This document shows positions 12,756 through 57,937 of a stretch of 64,000 nucleotides of DNA, in pieces. Both the position numbers and the translations under genes were made by a program. Each line of letters starts with the position of its first letter. Position 1 is the first letter of the stretch. Location of the stretch: the NCBI RefSeq assembly GCF_051903065.1, contig NZ_CP178438.1, one strand, 5' to 3'. Source of the DNA: Escherichia coli. GTDB lineage: Bacteria > Pseudomonadota > Gammaproteobacteria > Enterobacterales > Enterobacteriaceae. Under the pieces are notes generated by a model. It had not been told where the DNA came from and did not search any database. It saw only the letters and a program-made list of their open reading frames with translations.

Positions 12756-13472
12756 ATGAGACTTGAGTTTTCAATTTATCGCTATAACCCGGATGTTGAT
12801 GATGCTCCGCGTATGCAGGATTACACCCTGGAAGCGGATGAAGGTCGCGACATGATGCTGCTGGATGCGCTTATCCAGCTGAAAGAGAAAGATCCCAGCC
12901 TGTCGTTCCGTCGCTCCTGTCGTGAAGGTGTGTGCGGTTCCGACGGTCTGAACATGAACGGCAAGAATGGTCTGGCCTGTATTACCCCGATTTCGGCACT
13001 CAACCAGCCGGGCAAGAAGATTGTGATTCGCCCTCTGCCAGGTTTACCGGTGATCCGCGATTTGGTGGTAGACATGGGACAATTCTATGCGCAATATGAG
13101 AAAATTAAGCCTTACCTGTTGAATAATGAACAAAATCCGCCAGCTCGCGAGCATTTACAGATGCCAGAGCAGCGCGAAAAACTCGACGGGTTGTATGAAT
13201 GTATTCTCTGCGCATGTTGTTCAACCTCTTGTCCGTCTTTCTGGTGGAATCCCGATAAGTTTATCGGCCCGGCAGGCTTGTTAGCGGCATATCGTTTCCT
13301 GATCGATAGCCGTGATACCGAGACTGACAGCCGCCTCGACGGTTTGAGCGATGCATTCAGTGTATTCCGCTGTCACAGCATCATGAACTGCGTCAGTGTA
13401 TGTCCGAAGGGGCTGAACCCGACGCGCGCCATCGGTCATATCAAGTCGATGTTGTTGCAACGTAATGCGTAA
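12756..13472 (+). CDS. sdhB: Succinate dehydrogenase iron-sulfur subunit
   Basis: 238-aa ORF with Cys clusters for 2Fe-2S, 4Fe-4S and 3Fe-4S centres. Confidence 0.97.
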   Translation: MRLEFSIYRYNPDVDDAPRMQDYTLEADEGRDMMLLDALIQLKEKDPSLSFRRSCREGVCGSDGLNMNGKNGLACITPISALNQPGKKIVIRPLPGLPVIRDLVVDMGQFYAQYEKIKPYLLNNEQNPPAREHLQMPEQREKLDGLYECILCACCSTSCPSFWWNPDKFIGPAGLLAAYRFLIDSRDTETDSRLDGLSDAFSVFRCHSIMNCVSVCPKGLNPTRAIGHIKSMLLQRNA

Positions 13473-13483
13473 ACCGTAGGCCT

Positions 13484-13593
13484 GATAAGACGCGCAAGCG
13501 TCGCATCAGGCAACCAGTGCCGGATGCGGCGTGAACGCCTTATCCGGCCTACAAGTCATTACCCGTAGGCCTGATAAGCGCAGCGCATCAGGC
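13484..13593. repeat. REP/BIME palindromic units in sdhB-sucA spacer
   Basis: Repeated CCGTAGGCCTGATAAGRCGC / GCGTCGCATCAGGC-type imperfect palindromes. Confidence 0.7.
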
Positions 13594-13772
13594 GTAACAA
13601 AGAAATGCAGGAAATCTTTAAAAACTGCCCCTGACACTAAGACAGTTTTTAAAGGTTCCTTCGCGAGCCACTACGTAGACAAGAGCTCGCAAGTGAACCC
13701 CGGCACGCACATCACTGTGCGTGGTAGTATCCACGGCGAAGTAAGCATAAAAAAGATGCTTAAGGGATCACG

Positions 13773-16574
13773 ATGCAGAACAGCGCTTTGAAAGCCTGGT
13801 TGGACTCTTCTTACCTCTCTGGCGCAAACCAGAGCTGGATAGAACAGCTCTATGAAGACTTCTTAACCGATCCTGACTCGGTTGACGCTAACTGGCGTTC
13901 GACGTTCCAGCAGTTACCTGGTACGGGAGTCAAACCGGATCAATTCCACTCTCAAACGCGTGAATATTTCCGCCGCCTGGCGAAAGACGCTTCACGTTAC
14001 TCTTCAACGATCTCCGACCCTGACACCAATGTGAAGCAGGTTAAAGTCCTGCAGCTCATTAACGCATACCGCTTCCGTGGTCACCAGCATGCGAATCTCG
14101 ATCCGCTGGGACTGTGGCAGCAAGATAAAGTGGCCGATCTGGATCCGTCTTTCCACGATCTGACCGAAGCAGACTTCCAGGAGACCTTCAACGTCGGTTC
14201 ATTTGCCAGCGGCAAAGAAACCATGAAACTCGGCGAACTGCTGGAAGCCCTCAAGCAAACCTACTGCGGCCCGATTGGTGCCGAGTATATGCACATTACC
14301 AGCACCGAAGAAAAACGCTGGATCCAACAGCGTATCGAGTCTGGTCGCGCGACTTTCAATAGCGAAGAGAAAAAACGCTTCTTAAGCGAACTGACCGCCG
14401 CTGAAGGCCTTGAACGTTACCTCGGCGCAAAATTCCCTGGCGCAAAACGCTTCTCGCTGGAAGGCGGTGACGCGTTAATCCCGATGCTTAAAGAGATGAT
14501 TCGCCACGCTGGCAACAGCGGCACCCGCGAAGTGGTTCTCGGGATGGCGCACCGTGGTCGTCTGAACGTGCTGGTGAACGTGCTGGGTAAAAAACCGCAA
14601 GACTTGTTCGACGAGTTTGCCGGTAAACATAAAGAACACCTCGGCACGGGTGACGTGAAATACCACATGGGCTTCTCGTCTGACTTCCAGACCGATGGCG
14701 GCCTGGTGCACCTGGCGCTGGCGTTTAACCCGTCTCACCTTGAGATTGTAAGCCCGGTAGTTATCGGTTCTGTTCGTGCCCGTCTGGACAGACTTGATGA
14801 GCCGAGCAGCAACAAAGTGCTGCCAATCACCATCCACGGTGACGCCGCAGTGACCGGGCAGGGCGTGGTTCAGGAAACTCTGAACATGTCGAAAGCGCGT
14901 GGTTATGAAGTTGGCGGTACGGTACGTATCGTTATCAACAACCAGGTTGGCTTCACCACCTCTAACCCGCTGGATGCCCGTTCAACGCCGTACTGTACTG
15001 ATATCGGTAAGATGGTTCAGGCACCGATTTTCCACGTAAACGCGGACGATCCGGAAGCCGTTGCCTTTGTGACCCGTCTGGCGCTCGATTTCCGTAACAC
15101 CTTTAAACGTGATGTCTTCATCGACCTGGTGTGCTACCGCCGTCACGGCCACAACGAAGCCGACGAGCCGAGCGCAACCCAGCCGCTGATGTATCAGAAA
15201 ATCAAAAAACATCCGACGCCGCGCAAAATCTATGCTGACAAGCTGGAGCAGGAAAAAGTGGCGACGCTGGAAGATGCCACCGAGATGGTTAACCTGTACC
15301 GCGATGCGCTGGATGCTGGCGATTGCGTAGTGGCAGAGTGGCGTCCGATGAACATGCACTCTTTCACCTGGTCGCCGTATCTCAACCACGAATGGGACGA
15401 AGAGTACCCGAACAAAGTTGAGATGAAGCGCCTGCAGGAACTGGCTAAACGCATCAGTACGGTGCCGGAAGCGGTTGAAATGCAGTCTCGCGTTGCCAAG
15501 ATTTATGGCGATCGCCAGGCGATGGCTGCCGGTGAGAAACTGTTCGACTGGGGCGGCGCGGAAAACCTCGCTTACGCCACGCTGGTTGACGAAGGCATTC
15601 CGGTTCGCCTGTCGGGTGAAGACTCCGGTCGCGGTACCTTCTTCCACCGCCACGCGGTGATCCACAACCAGTCTAACGGTTCCACTTACACGCCGCTGCA
15701 ACACATCCATAACGGGCAGGGCGCGTTCCGCGTCTGGGACTCCGTACTGTCTGAAGAAGCCGTGCTGGCGTTTGAATACGGTTATGCCACCGCAGAACCA
15801 CGCACTCTGACCATCTGGGAAGCGCAGTTCGGTGACTTCGCCAACGGTGCGCAGGTGGTTATCGACCAGTTCATCTCCTCTGGCGAACAGAAATGGGGCC
15901 GGATGTGTGGTCTGGTGATGTTGCTGCCGCACGGTTACGAAGGGCAGGGGCCGGAGCACTCCTCCGCGCGTCTGGAACGTTATCTGCAACTTTGTGCTGA
16001 GCAAAACATGCAGGTGTGCGTACCGTCTACCCCGGCACAGGTTTACCACATGCTGCGTCGTCAGGCGCTGCGCGGGATGCGTCGTCCGCTGGTCGTGATG
16101 TCGCCGAAATCCCTGCTGCGTCATCCGCTGGCGGTTTCCAGCCTCGAAGAACTGGCGAACGGCACCTTCCTGCCAGCCATCGGTGAAATCGACGAGCTTG
16201 ATCCGAAGGGCGTGAAGCGCGTAGTGATGTGTTCTGGTAAGGTTTATTACGACCTGCTGGAACAGCGTCGTAAGAACAATCAACACGATGTCGCCATAGT
16301 GCGTATCGAGCAACTCTACCCGTTCCCGCATAAAGCGATGCAGGAAGTGTTGCAGCAGTTTGCTCACGTCAAGGATTTTGTCTGGTGCCAGGAAGAGCCG
16401 CTCAACCAGGGCGCATGGTACTGCAGCCAGCATCATTTCCGTGAAGTGATTCCGTTTGGGGCTTCTCTGCGTTATGCAGGCCGCCCGGCCTCCGCCTCTC
16501 CGGCGGTAGGGTATATGTCCGTTCACCAGAAACAGCAACAAGATCTGGTTAATGACGCGCTGAACGTCGAATAA
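13773..16574 (+). CDS. sucA: 2-oxoglutarate dehydrogenase E1 component
   Basis: 933-aa ORF, recognised SucA sequence. Confidence 0.97.
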
Positions 16575-16588
16575 ATAAAGGATACACA

Positions 16589-17806
16589 ATGAGTAGCGTA
16601 GATATTCTGGTCCCTGACCTGCCTGAATCCGTAGCCGATGCCACCGTCGCAACCTGGCATAAAAAACCCGGCGACGCAGTCGTACGTGATGAAGTGCTGG
16701 TAGAAATCGAAACTGACAAAGTGGTACTGGAAGTACCGGCATCAGCAGACGGCATTCTGGATGCGGTTCTGGAAGATGAAGGTACAACCGTAACGTCTCG
16801 TCAGATCCTTGGTCGCCTGCGTGAAGGCAACAGCGCCGGTAAAGAAACCAGCGCCAAATCTGAAGAGAAAGCGTCCACTCCGGCGCAACGCCAGCAGGCG
16901 TCTCTGGAAGAACAAAACAACGATGCGTTAAGCCCGGCGATCCGTCGCCTGCTGGCTGAACACAACCTCGACGCCAGCGCCATTAAAGGCACCGGTGTGG
17001 GTGGTCGTCTGACCCGTGAAGATGTGGAAAAACATCTGGCGAAAGCCCCGGCGAAAGAGTCTGCACCGGCAGCGGCTGCTTCGGCAGCGCAACCGGCTCT
17101 GGCTGCACGTAGCGAAAAACGTGTCCCGATGACTCGCCTGCGTAAGCGTGTGGCAGAGCGTCTGCTGGAAGCGAAAAACTCCACCGCCATGCTGACCACG
17201 TTCAACGAAGTCAACATGAAGCCGATTATGGATCTGCGTAAGCAGTACGGTGAAGCGTTTGAAAAACGCCACGGCATCCGTCTGGGCTTTATGTCCTTCT
17301 ACGTGAAAGCGGTGGTTGAAGCCCTGAAACGTTACCCGGAAGTGAATGCTTCTATCGACGGCGATGACGTGGTTTACCACAACTATTTCGACGTCAGCAT
17401 GGCGGTTTCTACGCCGCGCGGCCTGGTGACGCCGGTACTGCGTGATGTCGATACCCTCGGCATGGCAGACATCGAGAAGAAAATCAAAGAGCTGGCAGTT
17501 AAAGGCCGTGACGGCAAGCTGACGGTTGAAGATCTGACCGGTGGTAACTTCACCATCACCAACGGTGGTGTGTTCGGTTCCCTGATGTCTACGCCTATCA
17601 TCAACCCGCCGCAGAGCGCAATTCTGGGTATGCACGCTATCAAAGATCGTCCGATGGCTGTGAATGGTCAGGTTGAGATCCTGCCGATGATGTACCTGGC
17701 GCTGTCCTACGATCACCGTCTGATCGATGGTCGCGAATCCGTGGGCTTCCTGGTAACGATCAAAGAGTTGCTGGAAGATCCGACGCGTCTGCTGCTGGAC
17801 GTGTAG
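16589..17806 (+). CDS. sucB: Dihydrolipoyllysine-residue succinyltransferase (E2 of 2-oxoglutarate dehydrogenase)
   Basis: 405-aa ORF; lipoyl domain (ETDKVV), Ala/Pro-rich linker, catalytic domain. Confidence 0.97.
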
Positions 17807-17825
17807 TAGTTTAAGTTTCACCTGC

Positions 17826-18000
17826 ACTGTAGACCGGATAAGACATTATCGCCTTCTCCGGCAATTGAAGCCTGATGCGACGCTTAACGCGTCTTATCAG
17901 GCCTACGGGAAGCACCGATGTAGGTCGGATAAGGCGCTCGCGCCGCATCCGACAAGCGATGCCAGATGCGACGCTTACACGTCTTATCAGGCCTACGGGT
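17826..18000. repeat. REP/BIME cluster in sucB-sucC spacer
   Basis: Several inverted copies of the GCCTGATGCGACGCTT / AAGCGTCGCATCAGGC-type REP unit. Confidence 0.7.
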
Positions 18001-18081
18001 GACCGACAATACCCGGAAGCGATACGAAATATTCGGTCTACGGTTTAAAAGATAACGATTACTGAAGGATGGACAGAACAC

Positions 18082-19248
18082 ATGAACTTACATGAATATC
18101 AGGCAAAACAACTGTTTGCCCGCTATGGCTTACCAGCACCGGTGGGTTATGCCTGTACTACTCCGCGCGAAGCAGAAGAAGCCGCTTCAAAAATCGGTGC
18201 CGGTCCGTGGGTAGTGAAATGTCAGGTTCACGCTGGTGGCCGCGGTAAAGCGGGCGGTGTGAAAGTTGTAAACAGCAAAGAAGACATCCGTGCTTTTGCA
18301 GAAAACTGGCTGGGCAAGCGTCTGGTAACGTATCAAACAGATGCCAATGGCCAACCGGTTAACCAGATTCTGGTTGAAGCAGCGACCGATATCGCTAAAG
18401 AGCTGTATCTCGGTGCCGTTGTAGACCGTAGTTCCCGTCGCGTGGTCTTTATGGCCTCCACCGAAGGCGGCGTGGAAATCGAAAAAGTGGCGGAAGAAAC
18501 TCCGCACCTGATCCATAAAGTTGCGCTTGATCCGCTGACTGGCCCGATGCCGTATCAAGGACGCGAGCTGGCGTTCAAACTGGGTCTGGAAGGTAAACTG
18601 GTTCAGCAGTTCACCAAAATCTTCATGGGCCTGGCGACCATTTTCCTGGAGCGCGACCTGGCGTTGATCGAAATCAACCCGCTGGTCATCACCAAACAGG
18701 GCGATCTGATTTGCCTCGACGGCAAACTGGGCGCTGATGGCAACGCCCTGTTCCGCCAGCCTGATCTGCGCGAAATGCGTGACCAGTCGCAGGAAGATCC
18801 GCGTGAAGCACAGGCTGCACAGTGGGAACTGAACTACGTTGCGCTGGACGGTAACATCGGTTGTATGGTTAACGGCGCAGGTCTGGCGATGGGTACGATG
18901 GACATCGTTAAACTGCACGGCGGCGAACCAGCTAACTTCCTTGACGTTGGCGGCGGCGCAACCAAAGAACGTGTAACCGAAGCGTTCAAAATCATTCTCT
19001 CTGACGACAAAGTGAAAGCCGTTCTGGTTAACATCTTCGGCGGTATCGTTCGTTGCGACCTGATCGCTGACGGTATCATCGGCGCGGTAGCGGAAGTGGG
19101 TGTTAACGTACCGGTCGTGGTACGTCTGGAAGGTAACAACGCCGAACTCGGCGCGAAGAAACTGGCTGACAGCGGCCTGAATATTATTGCAGCAAAAGGT
19201 CTGACGGATGCAGCTCAGCAGGTTGTTGCCGCAGTGGAGGGGAAATAA
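18082..19248 (+). CDS. sucC: Succinyl-CoA synthetase beta subunit
   Basis: 388-aa ORF, recognised SucC sequence. Confidence 0.97.
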
Positions 19249-20352: not shown

Positions 20353-20628
20353 GTGGCTTCTGTTTCTATCAGCTGTCCCTCCTGTTCAGCTACTGACGGG
20401 GTGGTGCGTAACGGCAAAAGCACCGCCGGACATCAGCGCTATCTCTGCTCTCACTGCCGTAAAACATGGCAACTGCAGTTCACTTACACCGCTTCTCAAC
20501 CCGGTACGCACCAGAAAATCATTGATATGGCCATGAATGGCGTTGGATGCCGGGCAACAGCCCGCATTATGGGCGTTGGCCTCAACACGATTTTACGTCA
20601 CTTAAAAAACTCAGGCCGCAGTCGGTAA
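20353..20628 (+). CDS. insA: IS1 InsA (transposition inhibitor, N-terminal part of InsAB' transposase)
   Basis: 91-aa [25 protein letters not shown]... recognised IS1 InsA. Confidence 0.9.
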
Positions 20629-21050
20629 CCTCGCGCATACAGCCGGGCAGTGACGTCATCGTCTGCGCGGAAATGGACGAACAGTGGGGCTATGTCGGGG
20701 CTAAATCGCGCCAGCGCTGGCTGTTTTACGCGTATGACAGGCTCCGGAAGACGGTTGTTGCGCACGTATTCGGTGAACGCACTATGGCGACGCTGGGGCG
20801 TCTTATGAGCCTGCTGTCACCCTTTGACGTGGTGATATGGATGACGGATGGCTGGCCGCTGTATGAATCCCGCCTGAAGGGAAAGCTGCACGTAATCAGC
20901 AAGCGATATACGCAGCGAATTGAGCGGCATAACCTGAATCTGAGGCAGCACCTGGCACGGCTGGGACGGAAGTCGCTGTCGTTCTCAAAATCGGTGGAGC
21001 TGCATGACAAAGTCATCGGGCATTATCTGAACATAAAACACTATCAATAA
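20547..21050 (+). CDS. insB: IS1 InsB reading frame (expressed as InsAB' via -1 frameshift)
   Basis: Overlapping -1 frame ORF; slippery A-run (TTAAAAAACTC) at about 20603 in the insA/insB overlap. Confidence 0.85.
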
Positions 21051-21560
21051 GTTGGAGTCATTACCGCCGCGACCGACCGCAAGCCACGAATAAGAACGAC
21101 GGCGAATTTCGAATCGTTACCTGATGCACTGGCTTCCCAGCGTTTGACCGTAGCGTTAAGTAAATCAACAAAAGCGATGTTCACCGCTTTTCGTCAAGTC
21201 GTGCCATTTGTCAGCCAGGATCGGGTCTTTACCCCGGATATTGCAGCATCGCAAAAATTCTTAGATGGATATGCTATAAATCAAAAATAAAATCTTTGTT
21301 GATTGTTTATCATAATATCCACAGATATGATAAATGATATCAATTTAATAATTTTCACTTAATGTGATTCCGGATAATTCGAAAGGCGCTGTGCTTTTCG
21401 GATTATTATTATCTGATTAAGATATTTGTCACGCCAGCCTTACTGGTTTATAAATGTCAATCATGATTCTTATAAATTATTTATTGCTGCTTTGGTTACC
21501 ATTACTTCGTAATAAGTAATGTATTTTTGATGGTTTAAACTATTTTTAAGGGACGGCATT

Positions 21561-22153
21561 ATGCGAGGGAAAATACCTAAAACGGAACTGCTGGTGACTT
21601 TTGAGGTCGTCGCACGTCATGAAAGTTATACCAGAGCGGCAGAGGAGTTAGCGTTAACCCAAAGTGCAGTATTCAGACAAGTAAGTGCGCTGGAGGAATT
21701 TTTACGTACTCCGTTATTTTCACACTCTAAAAAACGCATTTTTCTTAATGATACAGGGAAGTATTACCTGGGGATAGTAAAAGAAACATTAAATAAGCTG
21801 GAACGCGATACCAATACCATTATGACCTGGCAGCCTACGGTTCAGGTTATTGAACTTGCCGTTAATCCTACTTTTAGTACCCACTGGTTGATCCCAAATT
21901 TACATGAATTCACAAAGTTACATCCCGATATTATTGTTAATATTCATTCTTTAGCTAATAACGGCGATTTTCTTAATCGGGAGTACGATGCTGTCATTAT
22001 GCGCGAAAATTTTTGCGCGCCCTGGGCGGAAGTAGAATATCTCTTTGATGAGGAGATTTTGCCGGTATGCAGCGGCAGTTTGCTTGCAATGTCCGATCAA
22101 AAGCTGTCAGTGGCAGAACTGCTTACTGAGTTACCGCTTCTGCATCAAAGCAC
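21561..22153 (+). pseudogene. LysR-family transcriptional regulator gene, 3'-truncated by IS903-type element
   Basis: N-terminal LysR-type HTH (ESYTRAAEELALTQSAVFRQVSALEE) and start of substrate-binding domain; frame runs straight into the IS inverted repeat at 22154; about 200 codons of an expected roughly 300. Confidence 0.7.
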
Positions 22154-23210
22154 GGCTTTGTTGAATAAATCAGATTTCGGGTAAGTCTCCCCCGTAGCGG
22201 GTTGTGTTTTCAGGCAATACGCACGCTTTCAGGCATACCTGCTTTCGTCATTTTGTTCAGCGCTCGTACCAGGGCCATAGCCTCTGCAACCTGACCATCG
22301 TAGTCACGCAGTGTCAGTGAACCCCCGAACAGCTGTTTTACCCGGTACATCGCCGTTTCCGCTATCGAGCGACGGTTGTAATCTGTTGTCCATTTCCACC
22401 GCGCATTACTCCCGGTCATTCGCTGATTAGCCACTGCACGGTTACGGTCTGCATATTCACCGGGCCAGTAACCCGCACCTTTTCGGGGAGGGATAAGCGC
22501 GCTGATTTTCTTACGCCGCAGTTCATCGTGACATAGCCGGGTATCGTAAGCGCCATCGGCGGCGGCTGACCTGATTTTCCGGTGGGTTTGCCGGATTAAC
22601 CCGGGGAAGGCCTCTGAGTCCGTAACGTTGTTCAGCGACAGGTCAGCGCAGATGATTTCATGTGTTTTACTGTCAACGGCGAGATGCAGCTTACGCCAGA
22701 TACGGCGGCGTTCCTGGCCATGCTTTTTGACTTTCCACTCGCCTTCACCGAAGACCTTCAGCCCGGTGGAATCAATTACCAGGTGTGCGATTTCACCCCG
22801 GGTGGGCGTTTTGAAACTGACATTAACCGACTTTGCCCGCCTGCTGACACAGCTGTAATCCGGGCAGCGTAGCGGAACGTTCATCAGAGAAAAAATGGAA
22901 TCAATAAAGCCCTGCGCAGCGCGCAGGGTCAGCCTGAATACGCGTTTAATGACCAGCACAGTCGTGATGGCAAGGTCAGAATAGCGCTGAGGTCTGCCTC
23001 GTGAAGAAGGTGTTGCTGACTCATACCAGGCCTGAATAGCTTCATCATCCAGCCAGAAAGTTATGGAGCCACGGTTGATGAGGGCTTTATTGTAGGTGGG
23101 CCAGTTGGTGATTTTGAACTTTTGCTTTGCCACGGAACGGTCTGCGTTGTCGGGAAGATACGTGATCTGATCCTTCAACTCAGCAAAAGTTCGATTTATT
23201 CAACAAAGCC
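22154..23210 (-). mobile_element. IS903-type insertion sequence (IS5 family), 1057 bp, no target-site duplication
   Basis: 18-bp terminal inverted repeats GGCTTTGTTGAATAAATC at both ends; single transposase ORF; flanks TCAAAGCAC vs ATTTATCAG do not match. Confidence 0.85.
22210..23133 (-). CDS. IS903-type transposase (DDE, IS5 family)
   Basis: ORF ending ...KAGMPESVRIA, recognised as IS903 transposase; start placed at the GTG giving 307 aa (longest ORF extends to 23178). Confidence 0.85.
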   Translation of the reverse strand: MAKQKFKITNWPTYNKALINRGSITFWLDDEAIQAWYESATPSSRGRPQRYSDLAITTVLVIKRVFRLTLRAAQGFIDSIFSLMNVPLRCPDYSCVSRRAKSVNVSFKTPTRGEIAHLVIDSTGLKVFGEGEWKVKKHGQERRRIWRKLHLAVDSKTHEIICADLSLNNVTDSEAFPGLIRQTHRKIRSAAADGAYDTRLCHDELRRKKISALIPPRKGAGYWPGEYADRNRAVANQRMTGSNARWKWTTDYNRRSIAETAMYRVKQLFGGSLTLRDYDGQVAEAMALVRALNKMTKAGMPESVRIA

Positions 23211-31532: not shown

Positions 31533-32078
<546 letters not shown>

Positions 32079-32087
32079 GAGAATTGC

Positions 32088-32879
32088 ATGAGCAGTAACT
32101 TCAGACATCAACTATTGAGTCTGTCGTTACTGGTTGGTATAGCGGCCCCCTGGGCCGCTTTTGCTCAGGCACCAATCAGTAGTGTCGGCTCAGGCTCGGT
32201 CGAAGACCGCGTCACTCAACTTGAGCGTATTTCTAATGCTCACAGCCAGCTTTTAACCCAACTCCAGCAACAACTCTCTGATAATCAATCCGATATTGAT
32301 TCCCTGCGTGGTCAGATTCAGGAAAATCAGTATCAACTGAATCAGGTCGTGGAGCGGCAAAAGCAGATCCTGTTGCAGATCGACAGCCTCAGCAGCGGTG
32401 GTGCAGCGGCGCAATCAACCAGCGGTGATCAAAGCGGTGCGGCGGCATCAACGACGCCGACAGCTGATGCTGGTACTGCGAATGCTGGCGCGCCGGTGAA
32501 AAGCGGTGATGCAAACACGGATTACAATGCAGCTATTGCGCTGGTGCAGGATAAATCCCGCCAGGATGACGCAATGGTGGCATTTCAGAATTTCATCAAA
32601 AATTACCCTGATTCAACTTACCTGCCAAACGCCAATTATTGGCTGGGTCAGTTAAACTACAACAAGGGTAAAAAAGATGATGCGGCGTACTATTTTGCTT
32701 CGGTAGTGAAAAACTATCCGAAGTCACCAAAGGCTGCAGATGCGATGTTTAAAGTCGGCGTCATCATGCAGGACAAAGGTGACACCGCAAAAGCGAAAGC
32801 CGTATACCAGCAGGTTATCAGTAAATACCCTGGTACTGATGGCGCTAAACAGGCGCAAAAACGTCTGAACGCGATGTAA
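32088..32879 (+). CDS. cpoB: Cell-division coordinator CpoB (YbgF), TPR protein
   Basis: 263-aa ORF with signal peptide, coiled-coil and TPR regions. Confidence 0.95.
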   Translation: MSSNFRHQLLSLSLLVGIAAPWAAFAQAPISSVGSGSVEDRVTQLERISNAHSQLLTQLQQQLSDNQSDIDSLRGQIQENQYQLNQVVERQKQILLQIDSLSSGGAAAQSTSGDQSGAAASTTPTADAGTANAGAPVKSGDANTDYNAAIALVQDKSRQDDAMVAFQNFIKNYPDSTYLPNANYWLGQLNYNKGKKDDAAYYFASVVKNYPKSPKAADAMFKVGVIMQDKGDTAKAKAVYQQVISKYPGTDGAKQAQKRLNAM

Positions 32880-33042: not shown

Positions 33043-33118
33043 GGGTCGTTAGCTCAGTTGGTAGAGCAGTTGACTTTTAATCAATTGGTCGCAGGTTCGA
33101 ATCCTGCACGACCCACCA
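33043..33118 (+). tRNA. lysT: tRNA-Lys (anticodon UUU)
   Basis: 76 nt, GGGTCGTTAGCTCAGTTGGTAGAGC...CUUUUAAUC anticodon loop...CACCA. Confidence 0.95.
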
Positions 33119-33153
33119 CTAACCTAGTTAGTTGTAGTATCCAGCGTAGTATC

Positions 33154-33229
33154 GGGTGATTAGCTCAGCTGGGAGAGCACCTCCCTTACAAGGAGGGGGT
33201 CGGCGGTTCGATCCCGTCATCACCCACCA
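33154..33229 (+). tRNA. valT: tRNA-Val (anticodon UAC)
   Basis: 76 nt, GGGTGATTAGCTCAGCTGGGAGAGC...CUUACAAGG anticodon loop...CACCA. Confidence 0.95.
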
Positions 33230-33231
33230 CC

Positions 33232-33307
33232 GGGTCGTTAGCTCAGTTGGTAGAGCAGTTGACTTTTAATCAATTGGTCGCAGGTTCGAATCCTGCACGA
33301 CCCACCA
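33232..33307 (+). tRNA. lysW: tRNA-Lys (UUU)
   Basis: Identical copy of the tRNA-Lys sequence. Confidence 0.95.
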
Positions 33308-33358
33308 CTAATTACGGTGGGTTCGGTGGAAGTAGTTTGTAGTATCCAGCGCAGTATC

Positions 33359-33434
33359 GGGTGATTAGCTCAGCTGGGAGAGCACCTCCCTTACAAGGAG
33401 GGGGTCGGCGGTTCGATCCCGTCATCACCCACCA
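33359..33434 (+). tRNA. valZ: tRNA-Val (UAC)
   Basis: Identical copy of the tRNA-Val sequence. Confidence 0.95.
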
Positions 33435-33437
33435 CTC

Positions 33438-33513
33438 GGGTCGTTAGCTCAGTTGGTAGAGCAGTTGACTTTTAATCAATTGGTCGCAGGTTCGAATCCT
33501 GCACGACCCACCA
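33438..33513 (+). tRNA. lysY: tRNA-Lys (UUU)
   Basis: Identical copy of the tRNA-Lys sequence. Confidence 0.95.
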
Positions 33514-33593
33514 ATTTTAACATCAAACTCAGATGTTAAGCGTGAAGGATAACGTTGCGCCAGCAACGGCCCGTAGGGCGAGCGAAGCGAGTC

Positions 33594-33611
33594 ATCCTGC
33601 ACGACCCACCA
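33594..33611 (+). other. Orphan 18-nt copy of the tRNA-Lys 3' end (ATCCTGCACGACCCACCA) in the lysY-lysZ spacer
   Basis: Exact match to the last 18 nt of the tRNA-Lys genes with no upstream tRNA body. Confidence 0.6.
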
Positions 33612-33659
33612 ATCTTAAAGATTGGCCCCGAGTAAAAATCTTTCAGGTAACACCCGTAT

Positions 33660-33735
33660 GGGTCGTTAGCTCAGTTGGTAGAGCAGTTGACTTTTAATCA
33701 ATTGGTCGCAGGTTCGAATCCTGCACGACCCACCA
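33660..33735 (+). tRNA. lysZ: tRNA-Lys (UUU)
   Basis: Identical copy of the tRNA-Lys sequence. Confidence 0.95.
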
Positions 33736-33768
33736 TCCTGAATGATTAAAGCAGCATAATCCCGCAAG

Positions 33769-33844
33769 GGGTCGTTAGCTCAGTTGGTAGAGCAGTTGAC
33801 TTTTAATCAATTGGTCGCAGGTTCGAATCCTGCACGACCCACCA
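33769..33844 (+). tRNA. lysQ: tRNA-Lys (UUU)
   Basis: Identical copy of the tRNA-Lys sequence. Confidence 0.95.
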
Positions 33845-37669: not shown

Positions 37670-38722
37670 ATGAATTATCAGAACGACGATTTACGCATCA
37701 AAGAAATCAAAGAGTTACTTCCTCCTGTCGCATTGCTGGAAAAATTCCCCGCTACTGAAAATGCCGCTAATACGGTTGCCCATGCCCGAAAAGCGATCCA
37801 TAAAATCCTGAAAGGGAATGATGATCGCCTGTTAGTGGTGATTGGTCCGTGCTCAATTCATGATCCTGTAGCGGCTAAAGAGTACGCAACTCGCTTGTTG
37901 GCGCTGCGTGAAGAGCTGAAAGATGAGCTGGAAATCGTAATGCGCGTCTATTTTGAAAAGCCGCGCACCACGGTGGGCTGGAAAGGGCTGATTAACGATC
38001 CGCATATGGACAATAGCTTCCAGATCAACGACGGTTTGCGTATTGCCCGTAAATTGCTGCTCGATATTAACGACAGCGGTCTGCCAGCGGCGGGTGAGTT
38101 TCTCGATATGATCACCCCACAATATCTCGCTGACCTGATGAGCTGGGGCGCAATTGGCGCACGTACCACCGAATCGCAGGTGCACCGCGAACTGGCATCA
38201 GGGCTTTCTTGTCCGGTCGGCTTCAAAAATGGCACCGACGGTACGATTAAAGTGGCTATCGATGCCATTAATGCCGCCGGTGCGCCGCACTGCTTCCTGT
38301 CCGTAACGAAATGGGGGCATTCGGCGATTGTGAATACCAGCGGTAACGGTGATTGCCATATCATTCTGCGCGGCGGTAAAGAGCCTAACTACAGCGCGAA
38401 GCACGTTGCTGAAGTGAAAGAAGGGCTGAACAAAGCAGGCCTGCCAGCACAGGTGATGATCGATTTCAGCCATGCTAACTCGTCAAAACAATTCAAAAAG
38501 CAGATGGATGTTTGTGCTGACGTTTGCCAGCAGATTGCCGGTGGCGAAAAGGCCATTATCGGTGTGATGGTGGAAAGTCATCTGGTTGAAGGCAATCAGA
38601 GCCTGGAGAGCGGGGAGCCGCTGGCCTATGGTAAGAGCATCACCGATGCCTGCATTGGCTGGGAAGATACCGATGCTCTGTTACGTCAACTGGCGAACGC
38701 AGTGAAAGCGCGTCGCGGGTAA
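37670..38722 (+). CDS. aroG: DAHP synthase, Phe-sensitive
   Basis: 350-aa ORF, recognised AroG sequence. Confidence 0.97.
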   Translation: MNYQNDDLRIKEIKELLPPVALLEKFPATENAANTVAHARKAIHKILKGNDDRLLVVIGPCSIHDPVAAKEYATRLLALREELKDELEIVMRVYFEKPRTTVGWKGLINDPHMDNSFQINDGLRIARKLLLDINDSGLPAAGEFLDMITPQYLADLMSWGAIGARTTESQVHRELASGLSCPVGFKNGTDGTIKVAIDAINAAGAPHCFLSVTKWGHSAIVNTSGNGDCHIILRGGKEPNYSAKHVAEVKEGLNKAGLPAQVMIDFSHANSSKQFKKQMDVCADVCQQIAGGEKAIIGVMVESHLVEGNQSLESGEPLAYGKSITDACIGWEDTDALLRQLANAVKARRG

Positions 38723-38743
38723 GGTTTCATTGTTGGATGCGCC

Positions 38744-38815
38744 GCATGGATGGCGCATCCGATGAATAACCGTAGGTCTGATAATATGCGAGCGTCGCAT
38801 CAGGCAGTGCTTCGT
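38744..38815. repeat. REP-like palindromic unit downstream of aroG
   Basis: GGATGCGCCGCATGGATGGCGCATCC palindrome and GCGTCGCATCAGGC REP motif. Confidence 0.5.
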
Positions 38816-38831
38816 GGTTAGCGACGAAAAA

Positions 38832-38871
38832 CAAAAAAGCCGACTCATTTGCAGTCGGCTTTCTCATTTTT
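38832..38871. terminator. Bidirectional rho-independent terminator between convergent aroG and gpmA
   Basis: Hairpin AGCCGACT-CATTTGC-AGTCGGCT flanked by an A-run upstream and a T-run downstream. Confidence 0.7.
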
Positions 38872-55364: not shown

Positions 55365-55546
55365 ATATACTCGTCATACTTCAAGTTGCATGTGCTGCGT
55401 CTGCGTTCGCTCACCCCAGTCACTTACTTATGTAAGCTCCTGGGGATTCACTCGCTTGTCGCCTTCCTGCTACTCGAATTATTTAGAGTATATCCATTTA
55501 TTATCTTTCTGCGCACTTCACGGTGCGCAGATATCTGGAGCATTTG

Positions 55547-57808
55547 ATGATCAAGTTATCTGAAAAAGGCGTGTTTCTCGCCAGTAATAACGAAATAATT
55601 GCCGAAGAACATTTCACCGGCGAAATTAAAAAAGAAGAAGCCAAAAAAGGCACTATTGCCTGGTCTATTCTCTCTTCTCATAATACGTCCGGAAATATGG
55701 ATAAACTTAAAATTAAGTTTGATTCATTAGCCTCTCACGATATTACCTTTGTTGGTATTGTACAGACCGCTAAAGCGTCCGGTATGGAACGTTTCCCGCT
55801 GCCGTATGTGCTGACCAACTGCCATAACTCACTTTGCGCCGTCGGCGGCACCATTAACGGTGATGACCATGTTTTTGGTTTATCGGCGGCTCAGCGTTAT
55901 GGCGGTATTTTTGTGCCTCCGCATATTGCGGTCATCCATCAATATATGCGTGAGATGATGGCAGGTGGCGGCAAAATGATCCTCGGGTCAGACAGCCACA
56001 CCCGCTACGGTGCATTAGGGACAATGGCAGTCGGTGAGGGCGGCGGTGAGTTGGTAAAACAGCTGCTTAATGACACCTGGGATATCGACTATCCGGGAGT
56101 TGTTGCGGTGCATCTGACCGGAAAACCAGCGCCGTATGTTGGGCCGCAGGATGTGGCGCTGGCTATCATCGGTGCCGTGTTCAAAAACGGCTACGTCAAA
56201 AACAAAGTGATGGAATTCGTAGGTCCCGGTGTTGCTGCGCTCTCTACCGATTTCCGTAACAGCGTTGACGTTATGACCACTGAAACGACCTGTTTAAGTT
56301 CTGTCTGGCAAACCGATGAAGAAGTCCATAACTGGCTGGCGCTGCACGGTCGCGGCCAGGATTACTGCCAGCTTAACCCTCAACCGATGGCGTACTACGA
56401 TGGCTGCATCAGCGTTGATTTAAGCGCCATCAAACCAATGATTGCGCTGCCGTTCCACCCGAGCAACGTGTATGAAATCGACACACTGAACCAGAACCTG
56501 ACCGACATTCTGCGTGAGATTGAAATTGAGTCCGAACGCGTGGCGCACGGTAAAGCCAAACTCTCGCTGCTGGATAAAGTGGAAAATGGTCGCCTGAAAG
56601 TGCAGCAGGGGATTATCGCGGGCTGTTCTGGCGGTAACTACGAAAACGTCATCGCGGCGGCGAATGCACTGCGCGGTCAATCTTGTGGCAATGACACCTT
56701 CTCGTTGGCGGTTTACCCGTCATCACAGCCGGTGTTTATGGACTTAGCCAAAAAAGGTGTGGTAGCAGATTTGATTGGCGCAGGCGCAATTATCAGAACC
56801 GCGTTCTGCGGCCCATGCTTTGGCGCGGGCGATACGCCAATCAACAACGGTTTAAGTATTCGCCACACCACGCGTAACTTCCCGAACCGCGAAGGCTCTA
56901 AGCCAGCTAATGGGCAGATGTCAGCGGTGGCGTTGATGGACGCTCGTTCTATCGCTGCGACTGCGGCAAACGGTGGCTATTTAACCTCTGCCAGCGAACT
57001 TGATTGCTGGGACAACGTGCCGGAGTACGCCTTCGATGTAACGCCGTATAAAAATCGCGTCTATCAAGGATTTGTGAAAGGGGCGACCCAGCAACCGCTG
57101 ATTTACGGACCGAACATTAAAGACTGGCCGGAATTGGGTGCGCTGACTGACAATATCGTCCTCAAAGTGTGCTCGAAGATCCTCGACGAAGTGACCACCA
57201 CCGACGAACTGATCCCTTCCGGTGAAACCTCTTCTTATCGTTCAAATCCGATTGGTCTGGCGGAGTTTACCCTGTCTCGCCGCGATCCAGGTTATGTTGG
57301 CAGAAGTAAAGCGACTGCTGAGCTGGAAAATCAGCGTCTGGCGGGGAATGTCAGCGAGCTGACAGAGGTGTTTGCGCGCATTAAGCAGATTGCTGGTCAG
57401 GAGCATATTGATCCGCTGCAAACTGAAATTGGCAGCATGGTCTATGCGGTGAAACCAGGCGATGGTTCTGCGCGTGAACAGGCGGCGAGCTGCCAGCGTG
57501 TGATTGGCGGTCTGGCGAATATTGCCGAGGAGTACGCGACTAAACGCTACCGTTCTAACGTCATCAACTGGGGGATGTTACCGCTGCAGATGGCGGAAGT
57601 GCCAACCTTTGAAGTGGGGGATTACATTTACATCCCTGGCATTAAAGCGGCGCTGGATAATCCGGGTACGACGTTTAAAGGTTATGTGATCCATGAAGAT
57701 GCGCCGGTAACGGAAATTACGCTCTATATGGAAAGTCTGACTGCTGAAGAGCGCGAGATTATCAAGGCGGGTAGTTTGATTAACTTCAATAAAAACCGTC
57801 AGATGTAA
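55547..57808 (+). CDS. ybhJ: Aconitase-family protein (putative hydratase)
   Basis: Start placed at MIKLSEKG; large ORF with aconitase-like Cys-containing catalytic region and swivel domain. Confidence 0.85.
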
Positions 57809-57821
57809 AAAGCGCCATGTG

Positions 57822-57937
<116 letters not shown>

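Follow-up and report, generated by a model that had tools for sequence, protein, structure and literature searches.

REP clusters and conserved hairpins at the sdhB–sucA and sucB–sucC junctions of Escherichia coli

REP units in the two intercistronic spacers

The window, the entire 64,000-nucleotide stretch of E. coli DNA that was analysed, carries the gltA–sdhCDAB–sucABCD region. The ends of the reading frames define two intercistronic spacers on the plus strand: sdhB–sucA (13473–13772; 300 bp, identical to that of E. coli K-12) and sucB–sucC (17807–18081; 275 bp). The first contains three REP units and the second contains four, together with a degenerate fifth. The 14-nt REP tail CTTATCMGGCCTAC, with at most one mismatch, occurs nine times in the window compared with 0.01 occurrences expected from shuffled sequences, and seven of the nine lie inside the two spacers. 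The units are imperfect palindromes of approximately 29–37 nt that follow the Y, Z1 or Z2 consensus and end in GTAG/CTAC; six of them show 0–4 errors against their consensus. Copies are dispersed, a 481-bp query that includes the cluster matching a median of at least 39 places per E. coli genome, and all four REP sites of the window are extragenic, located between genes and 3′ of stop codons. The K-12 record consulted lists no REP features. Collinearity between the window and its best-matching genome, ECNB21-M121, ends at sucD.

The sdhB–sucA cluster opens with a Z2 unit on the minus strand (13476–13511; one error against the consensus, with tail motif), which begins 3 nt past the sdhB stop codon and whose own stem begins at 7 nt. 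It is followed by a Y unit on the plus strand (13519–13552; no errors against the consensus), and the two units together (13476–13552) are predicted to fold into one imperfect hairpin of approximately 30 bp. The third unit, assigned to the Z1 type by consensus comparison, lies on the minus strand (13565–13593), and its loop contains 13582, the equivalent of a published RNase III-dependent position in K-12. The equivalent of the K-12 Term-seq 3′ end 758531 is found at 13598 on the plus strand, 5 nt past this last REP. Beyond it, the sucA leader forms a conserved, AU-rich stem-loop on the plus strand that is not a REP (13610–13659; 17 bp, GGAAATCTTTAAAAACTG...CAGTTTTTAAAGGTTCC), with compensatory changes in 8 of its 17 pairs across 12 Enterobacterales and a folding energy of −19.9 kcal/mol (z = −4.6). 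The initial annotation had REPs filling both spacers. Their presence in both is confirmed, but those of sdhB–sucA cover only about 120 of the 300 nt, the other part of the spacer being taken up by the sucA leader and by conserved hairpins that are not REPs.

At sucB–sucC, where the first REP lies 22 nt past the sucB stop codon, the whole cluster is enclosed by an outer stem. The 5′ arm of this stem (17826–17840, plus strand) was identified as an inverted repeat with 87% complementarity and in the minimum free energy (MFE) fold, and comparison of alleles showed that the same arm also builds the sole hairpin of the 93-bp allele described below. The units run from a degenerate Y-type REP on the minus strand (17829–17862; tail motif with one mismatch, and seven errors against Y in K-12) through a Z2 unit on the plus strand (17870–17906) and a Y unit on the minus strand (17920–17953), both assigned by consensus comparison, to a further plus-strand Z2 unit (17961–17996). 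This last unit belongs to the second copy of a 91-bp Y+Z2 repeat, detected as direct repeats at 90–91-bp spacing. A degenerate Y-like remnant on the plus strand (about 18011–18044), recognized as an inverted repeat and in the MFE fold, closes the cluster; its tail (18030–18044) supplies the outer stem's 3′ arm. The equivalent of the K-12 Term-seq 3′ end 762981 is at 18049 on the plus strand, 5 nt past the stem.

Elsewhere in the window, REPs were found 3′ of aroG and ybhJ, as also reported in the initial annotation. A single minus-strand unit (38772–38805) follows aroG (37670–38722) between the convergent genes aroG and gpmA, and two Y-type units (57848–57883, plus strand; 57899–57932, minus strand) follow ybhJ (55523–57808) between the convergent genes ybhJ and ybhC.

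Strain variation and conserved hairpins

Among 5,426 complete E. coli genomes, 1,764 have a REP-free sdhB–sucA spacer of 200 bp, and 3,401 (63%) have a 93-bp sucB–sucC spacer without the REP cluster. The spacer alleles measure 200, 300, 349, 361 or 456 bp at sdhB–sucA and 93, 261, 274–275 or 365 bp at sucB–sucC, with 0, 3, 4 or 6 REPs past sdhB and 0, 4–5 or 6–7 past sucB. K-12 combines the 300-bp with the 274-bp allele, and O157:H7-type strains combine the 300-bp with the 93-bp allele. In strain KL53 a REP core is inverted in place. Six genomes with the 200-bp spacer were sampled: both clusters are missing in four of them, and the accessions of SdhB, SucA and SucC are the same in five, the exception (LR-60) differing in SucC only. 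Presence/absence polymorphism on this scale implies that any REP-specific effect is either tolerated or small. The REP-free alleles each retain one strong hairpin (−17.2 and −21.5 kcal/mol), which in the sdhB–sucA allele begins 12–15 nt past the stop codon.

Hairpins occur at the same two places in other gamma-proteobacteria. In 74–75 such genomes, the first 100 nt past the sdhB and sucB stop codons gave median folding z-scores of −3.2 and −2.8, respectively, with values below −2 in 85% and 76% of the genomes, compared with medians of 0.2 and −0.3, and 1% of values below −2, for coding controls. A U-run follows the hairpin in 11 species at sdhB and in 15 species at sucB; terminator-like combinations of hairpin and U-run are present at the junctions in Tatumella, Rosenbergiella, Pseudoalteromonas and Idiomarina. 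REP-like units occupy both junctions in Pluralibacter and Enterobacter, and sdhB–sucA only in Superficieibacter. The conserved feature is a hairpin past each stop codon; the REP itself is variable.

The reading that best accommodates these observations, and a probable one, is that the spacers hold old punctuation hairpins of the sdhCDAB–sucAB–sucCD unit, which polymorphic BIMEs have replaced or expanded in some lineages. A stable hairpin past the sdhB and sucB stops, present in nearly all sampled gamma-proteobacteria, would represent the ancestral state. In this strain and in K-12, the REP cluster would have replaced the older hairpin at sdhB–sucA, and at sucB–sucC would have expanded it from inside.

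Transcript ends and the role of the REPs

The two REP clusters fold far better than shuffled sequences (−120 kcal/mol, z = −6.4; −109 kcal/mol, z = −6.2). A search for a hairpin followed by a U-run yielded none at either cluster, and terminator-like matches in the region were as frequent as expected from shuffles. An intrinsic terminator at either REP cluster was thus rejected for want of a U-run, so any termination in the REP alleles would be factor-dependent or occur further downstream. Published K-12 transcript data were used for both junctions, K-12 having the same sdhB–sucA spacer as the window. Both K-12 3′ ends described above lie at the foot of the last hairpin, the position expected of a stabilizing REP; these ends appear in one of the three Term-seq lists that hold the region, in a table spanning three growth conditions. 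A Rho region centred at K-12 position 758971 shows coverage falling from 588 to 364 without bicyclomycin and from 764 to 694 with it. The loss over the sdhB–sucA junction is therefore approximately 1.5-fold and Rho-dependent, with a modest score (1.47) derived from 800-nt windows, so the step cannot be assigned to the REPs. No Rho-dependent step is reported at sucB–sucC in the K-12 data.

The RNase III-dependent K-12 site 758515 corresponds to window position 13582, inside the third REP, and represents a coverage-ratio peak within repeated sequence. RNase III processing of the sdhB–sucA spacer was reportedly first mapped by Cunningham and Guest in 1998. The AU-rich stem at 13610–13659 is a second candidate for the published site, but the only coordinate found, 758515, is in the third REP. 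In vitro, RNase III cuts a REP within the small RNA GlnZ, and the approximately 30-bp Z2–Y duplex is a plausible candidate substrate of this enzyme.

An RNA-seq study describes an internal terminator and a secondary promoter in the sdh–suc operon (PMC4161252). The REP325 element has been characterized as both a partly Rho-dependent terminator and a stabilizer (bioRxiv 10.64898/2026.03.23.713779), and genome-wide the ratio of upstream to downstream expression is higher across REPs. Expression is further acted on in these spacers by the Psuc promoter, by RNase III and by two small RNAs, GlnZ and Spot 42.

Under the punctuation reading, transcribed REPs would form very stable hairpins that block 3′-to-5′ exonucleases once Rho has terminated the transcript, or an endonuclease has cut it, at a point beyond them. 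The upstream segments, sdhCDAB and sucAB, would consequently retain shielded 3′ ends, and the downstream genes would be reached by a smaller number of full-length transcripts. The REPs would then be one interchangeable source of a hairpin rather than the element that fixes enzyme stoichiometry, which would also depend on the internal suc promoter, GlnZ, Spot 42 and translation. The proposal that the REPs stabilize upstream and attenuate downstream mRNA is in keeping with the K-12 3′ ends and the coverage step at sdhB–sucA, but the REP-free alleles, which also carry a hairpin, argue against a REP-specific role. The further suggestion that they set the stoichiometry of the Sdh, Suc E1/E2 and SucCD products is weakened by the many REP-free genomes, by the mostly identical flanking proteins and by the other controls acting in the spacers.

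A less probable account, although the strongest competitor, regards the REPs as neutral or selfish passengers without effect on expression, non-REP elements of the spacers doing the work; the repeats would accumulate here because the spacers are the only sizeable untranslated gaps of a 10-kb operon and already held hairpins. It draws on the polymorphism in presence and in copy number (0–6) next to mostly identical flanking proteins, the many combinations of alleles across the two junctions, the unique hairpins retained in REP-free genomes, and the KL53 inversion, which points to ongoing repeat dynamics. The sucB–sucC cluster, positioned inside the loop of the older hairpin with the arms kept, may moreover be structurally insulated. 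RNA 3′ ends at the foot of REP structures argue against passengers, as do an RNase III-dependent read loss that peaks within a REP and the REP325 and genome-wide data, in which REPs usually favour the upstream gene. A more far-reaching reading, which we regard as doubtful, would make the natural REP alleles heritable dials of the ratios of Sdh, 2-oxoglutarate dehydrogenase and succinyl-CoA synthetase mRNAs between lineages; in only some two-thirds of strains, moreover, sdh and suc mRNAs may have separate fates owing to an RNase III processing site that arose with the gain of the long Z2–Y duplex.

It is unlikely that the clusters act primarily at the DNA level, with the sucB–sucC BIME-2 as a strong, transcription-independent gyrase site and putative manager of supercoiling in or near this long, heavily transcribed operon. 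K-12 Topo-seq found multiple gyrase cleavage sites in this BIME-2, with a signal that rises when transcription is blocked (PMC6379681), and in the window cluster Y and Z2 units alternate in the manner diagnostic of the class; however, 63% of E. coli genomes are without the sucB–sucC BIME-2, and a gyrase site, although compatible with a role in RNA, leaves the RNA 3′ ends unexplained. It is similarly improbable that the first REP lowers SdhB synthesis through a hairpin that would stall the terminating ribosome and provoke mRNA cleavage: a REP less than 16 nt from a stop codon is reported to lower translation (Liang et al. 2015, as summarized in PMC12306157), and the Z2 unit 3 nt past the sdhB stop, with its stem at 7 nt, is within 15 nt, but sucB, with its first REP at 22 nt, is not covered, the REP-free hairpin at 12–15 nt would make the effect not REP-specific, and SdhB is needed in step with SdhA, SdhC and SdhD.

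The REP clusters of the sdh–suc operon are real but ordinary, and known in kind: published work already covers the junction REPs, their cleavage by gyrase, spacer processing by RNase III and a terminator internal to the operon. The variation documented here calls for caution in taking REP clusters at operon junctions as fixed regulatory parts, because one-third to two-thirds of E. coli genomes are without them and gamma-proteobacteria at large retain a hairpin at the equivalent position. The natural alleles provide a ready-made series for gauging what a REP contributes beyond a plain hairpin.

Relation to known REP systems

The sucB–sucC cluster has the arrangement of a BIME-2, with short linkers between inverted units that run Y(−) Z2(+) Y(−) Z2(+) and repeat every 91 bp. 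This is (Y, Z2) × 2, where other strains have zero or three copies; gyrase cleavage has been published for the K-12 copy. It differs from a BIME-2 in being flanked by two degenerate, mutually pairing Y-like halves. The window's sdhB–sucA cluster, Z2–Y–Z1, is an atypical BIME in which the first pair alone fits BIME-2, whereas other alleles of this spacer are (Z2, Y) × 2 or × 3. The several allele lengths reflect the strain-variable copy number of this class. BIME-1, the IHF-binding RIB/RIP element, consists of Y and Z1 units separated by a long L linker that bears the IHF site. Such an element was rejected at sdhB–sucA, because the 12-nt Y–Z1 linker (AAGTCATTACCC) is too short for the L motif.

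Both Y+Z2 pairs match naRNA4 (Rfam RF02564) above its gathering threshold of 59.5 bits (13479–13549, 88.4 bits; 17923–17993, 64.9 bits). The naRNA4 family derives from the Y+Z2 unit of REP325; the match reflects common REP sequence only and is silent on function at sdh–suc; the nucleoid-compaction role proposed for naRNA4 is itself unsupported in a 2026 preprint (bioRxiv 10.64898/2026.03.23.713779). Internal partial operon terminators, formed by a hairpin and a U-run, occupy the same position and probably serve the same role, but the E. coli REP alleles are missing the U-run.

Intercistronic REPs that act as stabilizers and attenuators are known from malE–malF and hisJ–hisQ. REP325, between yjdM and yjdN, is another intercistronic REP (bioRxiv 10.64898/2026.03.23.713779). 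Compared with these, the sdh–suc operon has two clusters, its downstream genes are also under their own promoter and small-RNA control, and its clusters are missing in one-third to two-thirds of E. coli genomes. The shared features are that REP hairpins, which have no U-tract, separate co-transcribed genes, that RNA 3′ ends map to the hairpin foot, and that the downstream loss of coverage is in part Rho-dependent.

REP units and hairpins at the two junctions

The region is the gltA-sdhCDAB-sucABCD locus of E. coli; a 5-kb query matched three E. coli chromosomes at 100% identity and is present in 5,423 of 5,426 complete genomes. The open reading frames sdhB (12756–13472), sucA (13773–16574), sucB (16589–17806) and sucC (18082–19248) leave a 300-nt sdhB–sucA spacer, identical to that of K-12 at every base, and a 275-nt sucB–sucC spacer, which matches its K-12 counterpart (274 nt) apart from small indels and a handful of substitutions. 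The first spacer carries three REP units of alternating orientation, Z2 (13476–13511), Y (13519–13552) and Z1 (13565–13593). The second carries three canonical units, Z2 (17870–17906), Y (17920–17953) and Z2 (17961–17996), together with a degenerate Y (17829–17862) and, with its end at 18042, a degenerate Y-like remnant. The window contains nine copies of the 14-nt REP tail, against 0.01 expected by chance, and 7 of the 9 lie inside these spacers; both clusters also exceed the gathering score of the Rfam family naRNA4, derived from the Y+Z2 unit of REP325. Further REPs lie downstream of aroG and of ybhJ (both identities confirmed with NCBIfam), each site between convergent genes. Because of the unit mapping, the tail count, the naRNA4 matches and the aroG and ybhJ sites, the initial annotation of REPs at both junctions and after these two genes stands, with one correction: REPs do not fill the sdhB–sucA spacer but occupy only about 40% of it, the rest being non-REP hairpins and the sucA leader.

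As RNA, the sdhB–sucA and sucB–sucC spacers fold far more stably than shuffled sequence (z of −6.4 and −6.2, respectively). In the first cluster, Z2 and Y are predicted to pair into an imperfect hairpin of about 30 bp, with Z1 forming a hairpin of its own. In the second, a 15-nt arm (17826–17840) pairs with 18030–18044, and the whole cluster is therefore enclosed by one outer stem. No U-run follows either cluster on its 3′ side, which rules out intrinsic terminators there. Downstream of the Z1 hairpin, the sucA leader holds a 17-bp non-REP stem (13610–13659) whose conservation extends across Enterobacterales, 8 of its 17 pairs showing compensatory changes; its loop carries insertions of 40–70 nt in several genera.

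An 86-aa GTG open reading frame called mechanically at 13531–13791, which crosses the REPs and reaches the start of sucA, is almost certainly spurious; b0725 is missing from the K-12 locus tag series at this position. Beyond aroG (38737–38866), a separate hairpin, GGATGCGCCGCATGGATGGCGCATCC, precedes the REP, and a hairpin with flanking A-runs and T-runs follows it, resembling a two-way terminator common to aroG and gpmA. Rfam matches elsewhere comprise the CpoB/ybgF thermometer (31979–32117), seven tRNA genes (33043–33841; tRNA-Lys and tRNA-Val in a related strain's annotation) and an RtT element (33445–33611).

Spacer alleles and hairpin conservation

Variation of the two spacers within E. 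coli, surveyed by sampling genomes down the similarity ranking and reading their spacers, is the main result. The sdhB–sucA spacer occurs as a REP-free 200-bp form with a small hairpin, GCCGGGGAAATCCCCCGGC, in place, and as forms of 300 bp (Z2-Y-Z1), 349 or 361 bp (two Z2-Y pairs) and 456 bp (three Z2-Y pairs). The sucB–sucC spacer measures 93 bp when it holds one hairpin, GTAGACCGAC...GTCGGTCTAC, and no canonical REP, 261–275 bp with the cluster as in the window, and 365 bp with one extra 91-bp unit. Allele-specific queries found the 200-bp form in 1,764 and the 93-bp form in 3,401 of 5,426 genomes. Six genomes with the 200-bp form were sampled evenly, and four of them also have the 93-bp form, so canonical REPs are absent there from both junctions. 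SdhB and SucA accessions are identical in all six, and the SucC accession is shared by five, strain LR-60 differing. Both short alleles retain strong hairpins (−17.2 and −21.5 kcal/mol). Because the arms of the 93-bp hairpin have the same sequences as the window's outer stem, the sucB–sucC cluster looks, from sequence, like an expansion within an older hairpin. Strain KL53 (sucB–sucC spacer at 9328–9601 of the fetched locus) shows, when compared with K-12, an exact in-place inversion of the central Y REP core, from GGATAAGGCGCAAGCGCCGCATCC to GGATGCGGCGCTTGCGCCTTATCC, with unchanged flanks.

Among 80 sucA loci of other gamma-proteobacteria, both gaps are present wherever the locus included the flanking genes, spanning 68–660 nt at sdhB–sucA and 57–221 nt at sucB–sucC, with one outlier of 1,068 nt from a metagenome-assembled genome. 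The first 100 nt past the stop codon gave a median folding z of −3.2 for sdhB (85% below −2) and −2.8 for sucB (76% below −2), against 0.2 and −0.3 for coding controls (1% below −2). A hairpin followed by a U-run, as in true terminators, was found after sdhB in 11 species and after sucB in 15. E. coli-type REP-like units occur at the sdhB–sucA junction in Superficieibacter and at both junctions in Pluralibacter and Enterobacter, and nowhere else in these 12.8-kb loci. REP-free relatives (for example, Enterobacter sp. R1, Klebsiella sp. BIGb0407 and E. asburiae) also have spacers near 200 and 93 nt. The 660-bp sdhB–sucA spacer of Superficieibacter electus holds, at 4350–4777 of its locus, one Y-like unit and six more REP-like units at 68-bp spacing.

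The spot between sucD/sdhX and cydA (20547–23178) is hypervariable: it is occupied by mngR-mngA-mngB in K-12 and by a methylaspartate mutase/fumarate hydratase island in other strains, and in the window it holds a fragment of an IS1 transposase, a truncated regulator of the LysR type and an IS5 transposase.

Transcript ends and the proposed role of the hairpins

Published Term-seq 3′ ends in K-12 at 758531 and 762981 (PMC7815308) map to window positions 13598 and 18049, each 5 nt past a structure: the last sdhB–sucA REP and the sucB–sucC outer stem, respectively. Another, at 758707, maps to 13774, 2 nt inside sucA at its start codon. A Rho-dependent region is centred at 758971, where coverage falls from 588 to 364 in the absence of bicyclomycin and from 764 to 694 in its presence (PMC7815308). 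In an RNA-seq operon map, the sdh–suc operon was chosen to illustrate an internal terminator that is partly read through, combined with a secondary promoter (PMC4161252). An RNase III-dependent site listed at 758515 (PMC5371410) corresponds to 13582, within the Z1 unit. The small RNA GlnZ, which pairs with the sucA leader, contains a REP that RNase III cuts in vitro; a second small RNA, Spot 42, pairs at the start of sucC. REP325 serves both as a stabiliser and as a terminator that depends partly on Rho, and across the genome REPs shift expression in favour of the upstream gene.

On the best-supported reading, the conserved functional feature is a hairpin after sdhB and another after sucB. Such hairpins would mark and protect the 3′ ends of operon segments, with modest loss of readthrough, and in the window strain the REP clusters would supply them. 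The earlier proposal that REPs may help set the ratios of Sdh and Suc products is right in kind, but it over-credits the REPs, because they are optional, range from 0 to 6 units, and share these spacers with several other controls. Two readings are compatible with this hairpin role: the clusters may act on DNA as gyrase sites, several cleavage sites being reported in the K-12 sucB–sucC BIME-2 (PMC6379681), and the first REP, 3 nt from the sdhB stop codon, may stall ribosomes there, following a distance rule as summarised in PMC12306157. The clusters may also be neutral passengers. The REPs here belong to a known class of element, the role proposed for them is a textbook one and the operon is well studied; the allele census and hairpin conservation are modest additions to that picture.
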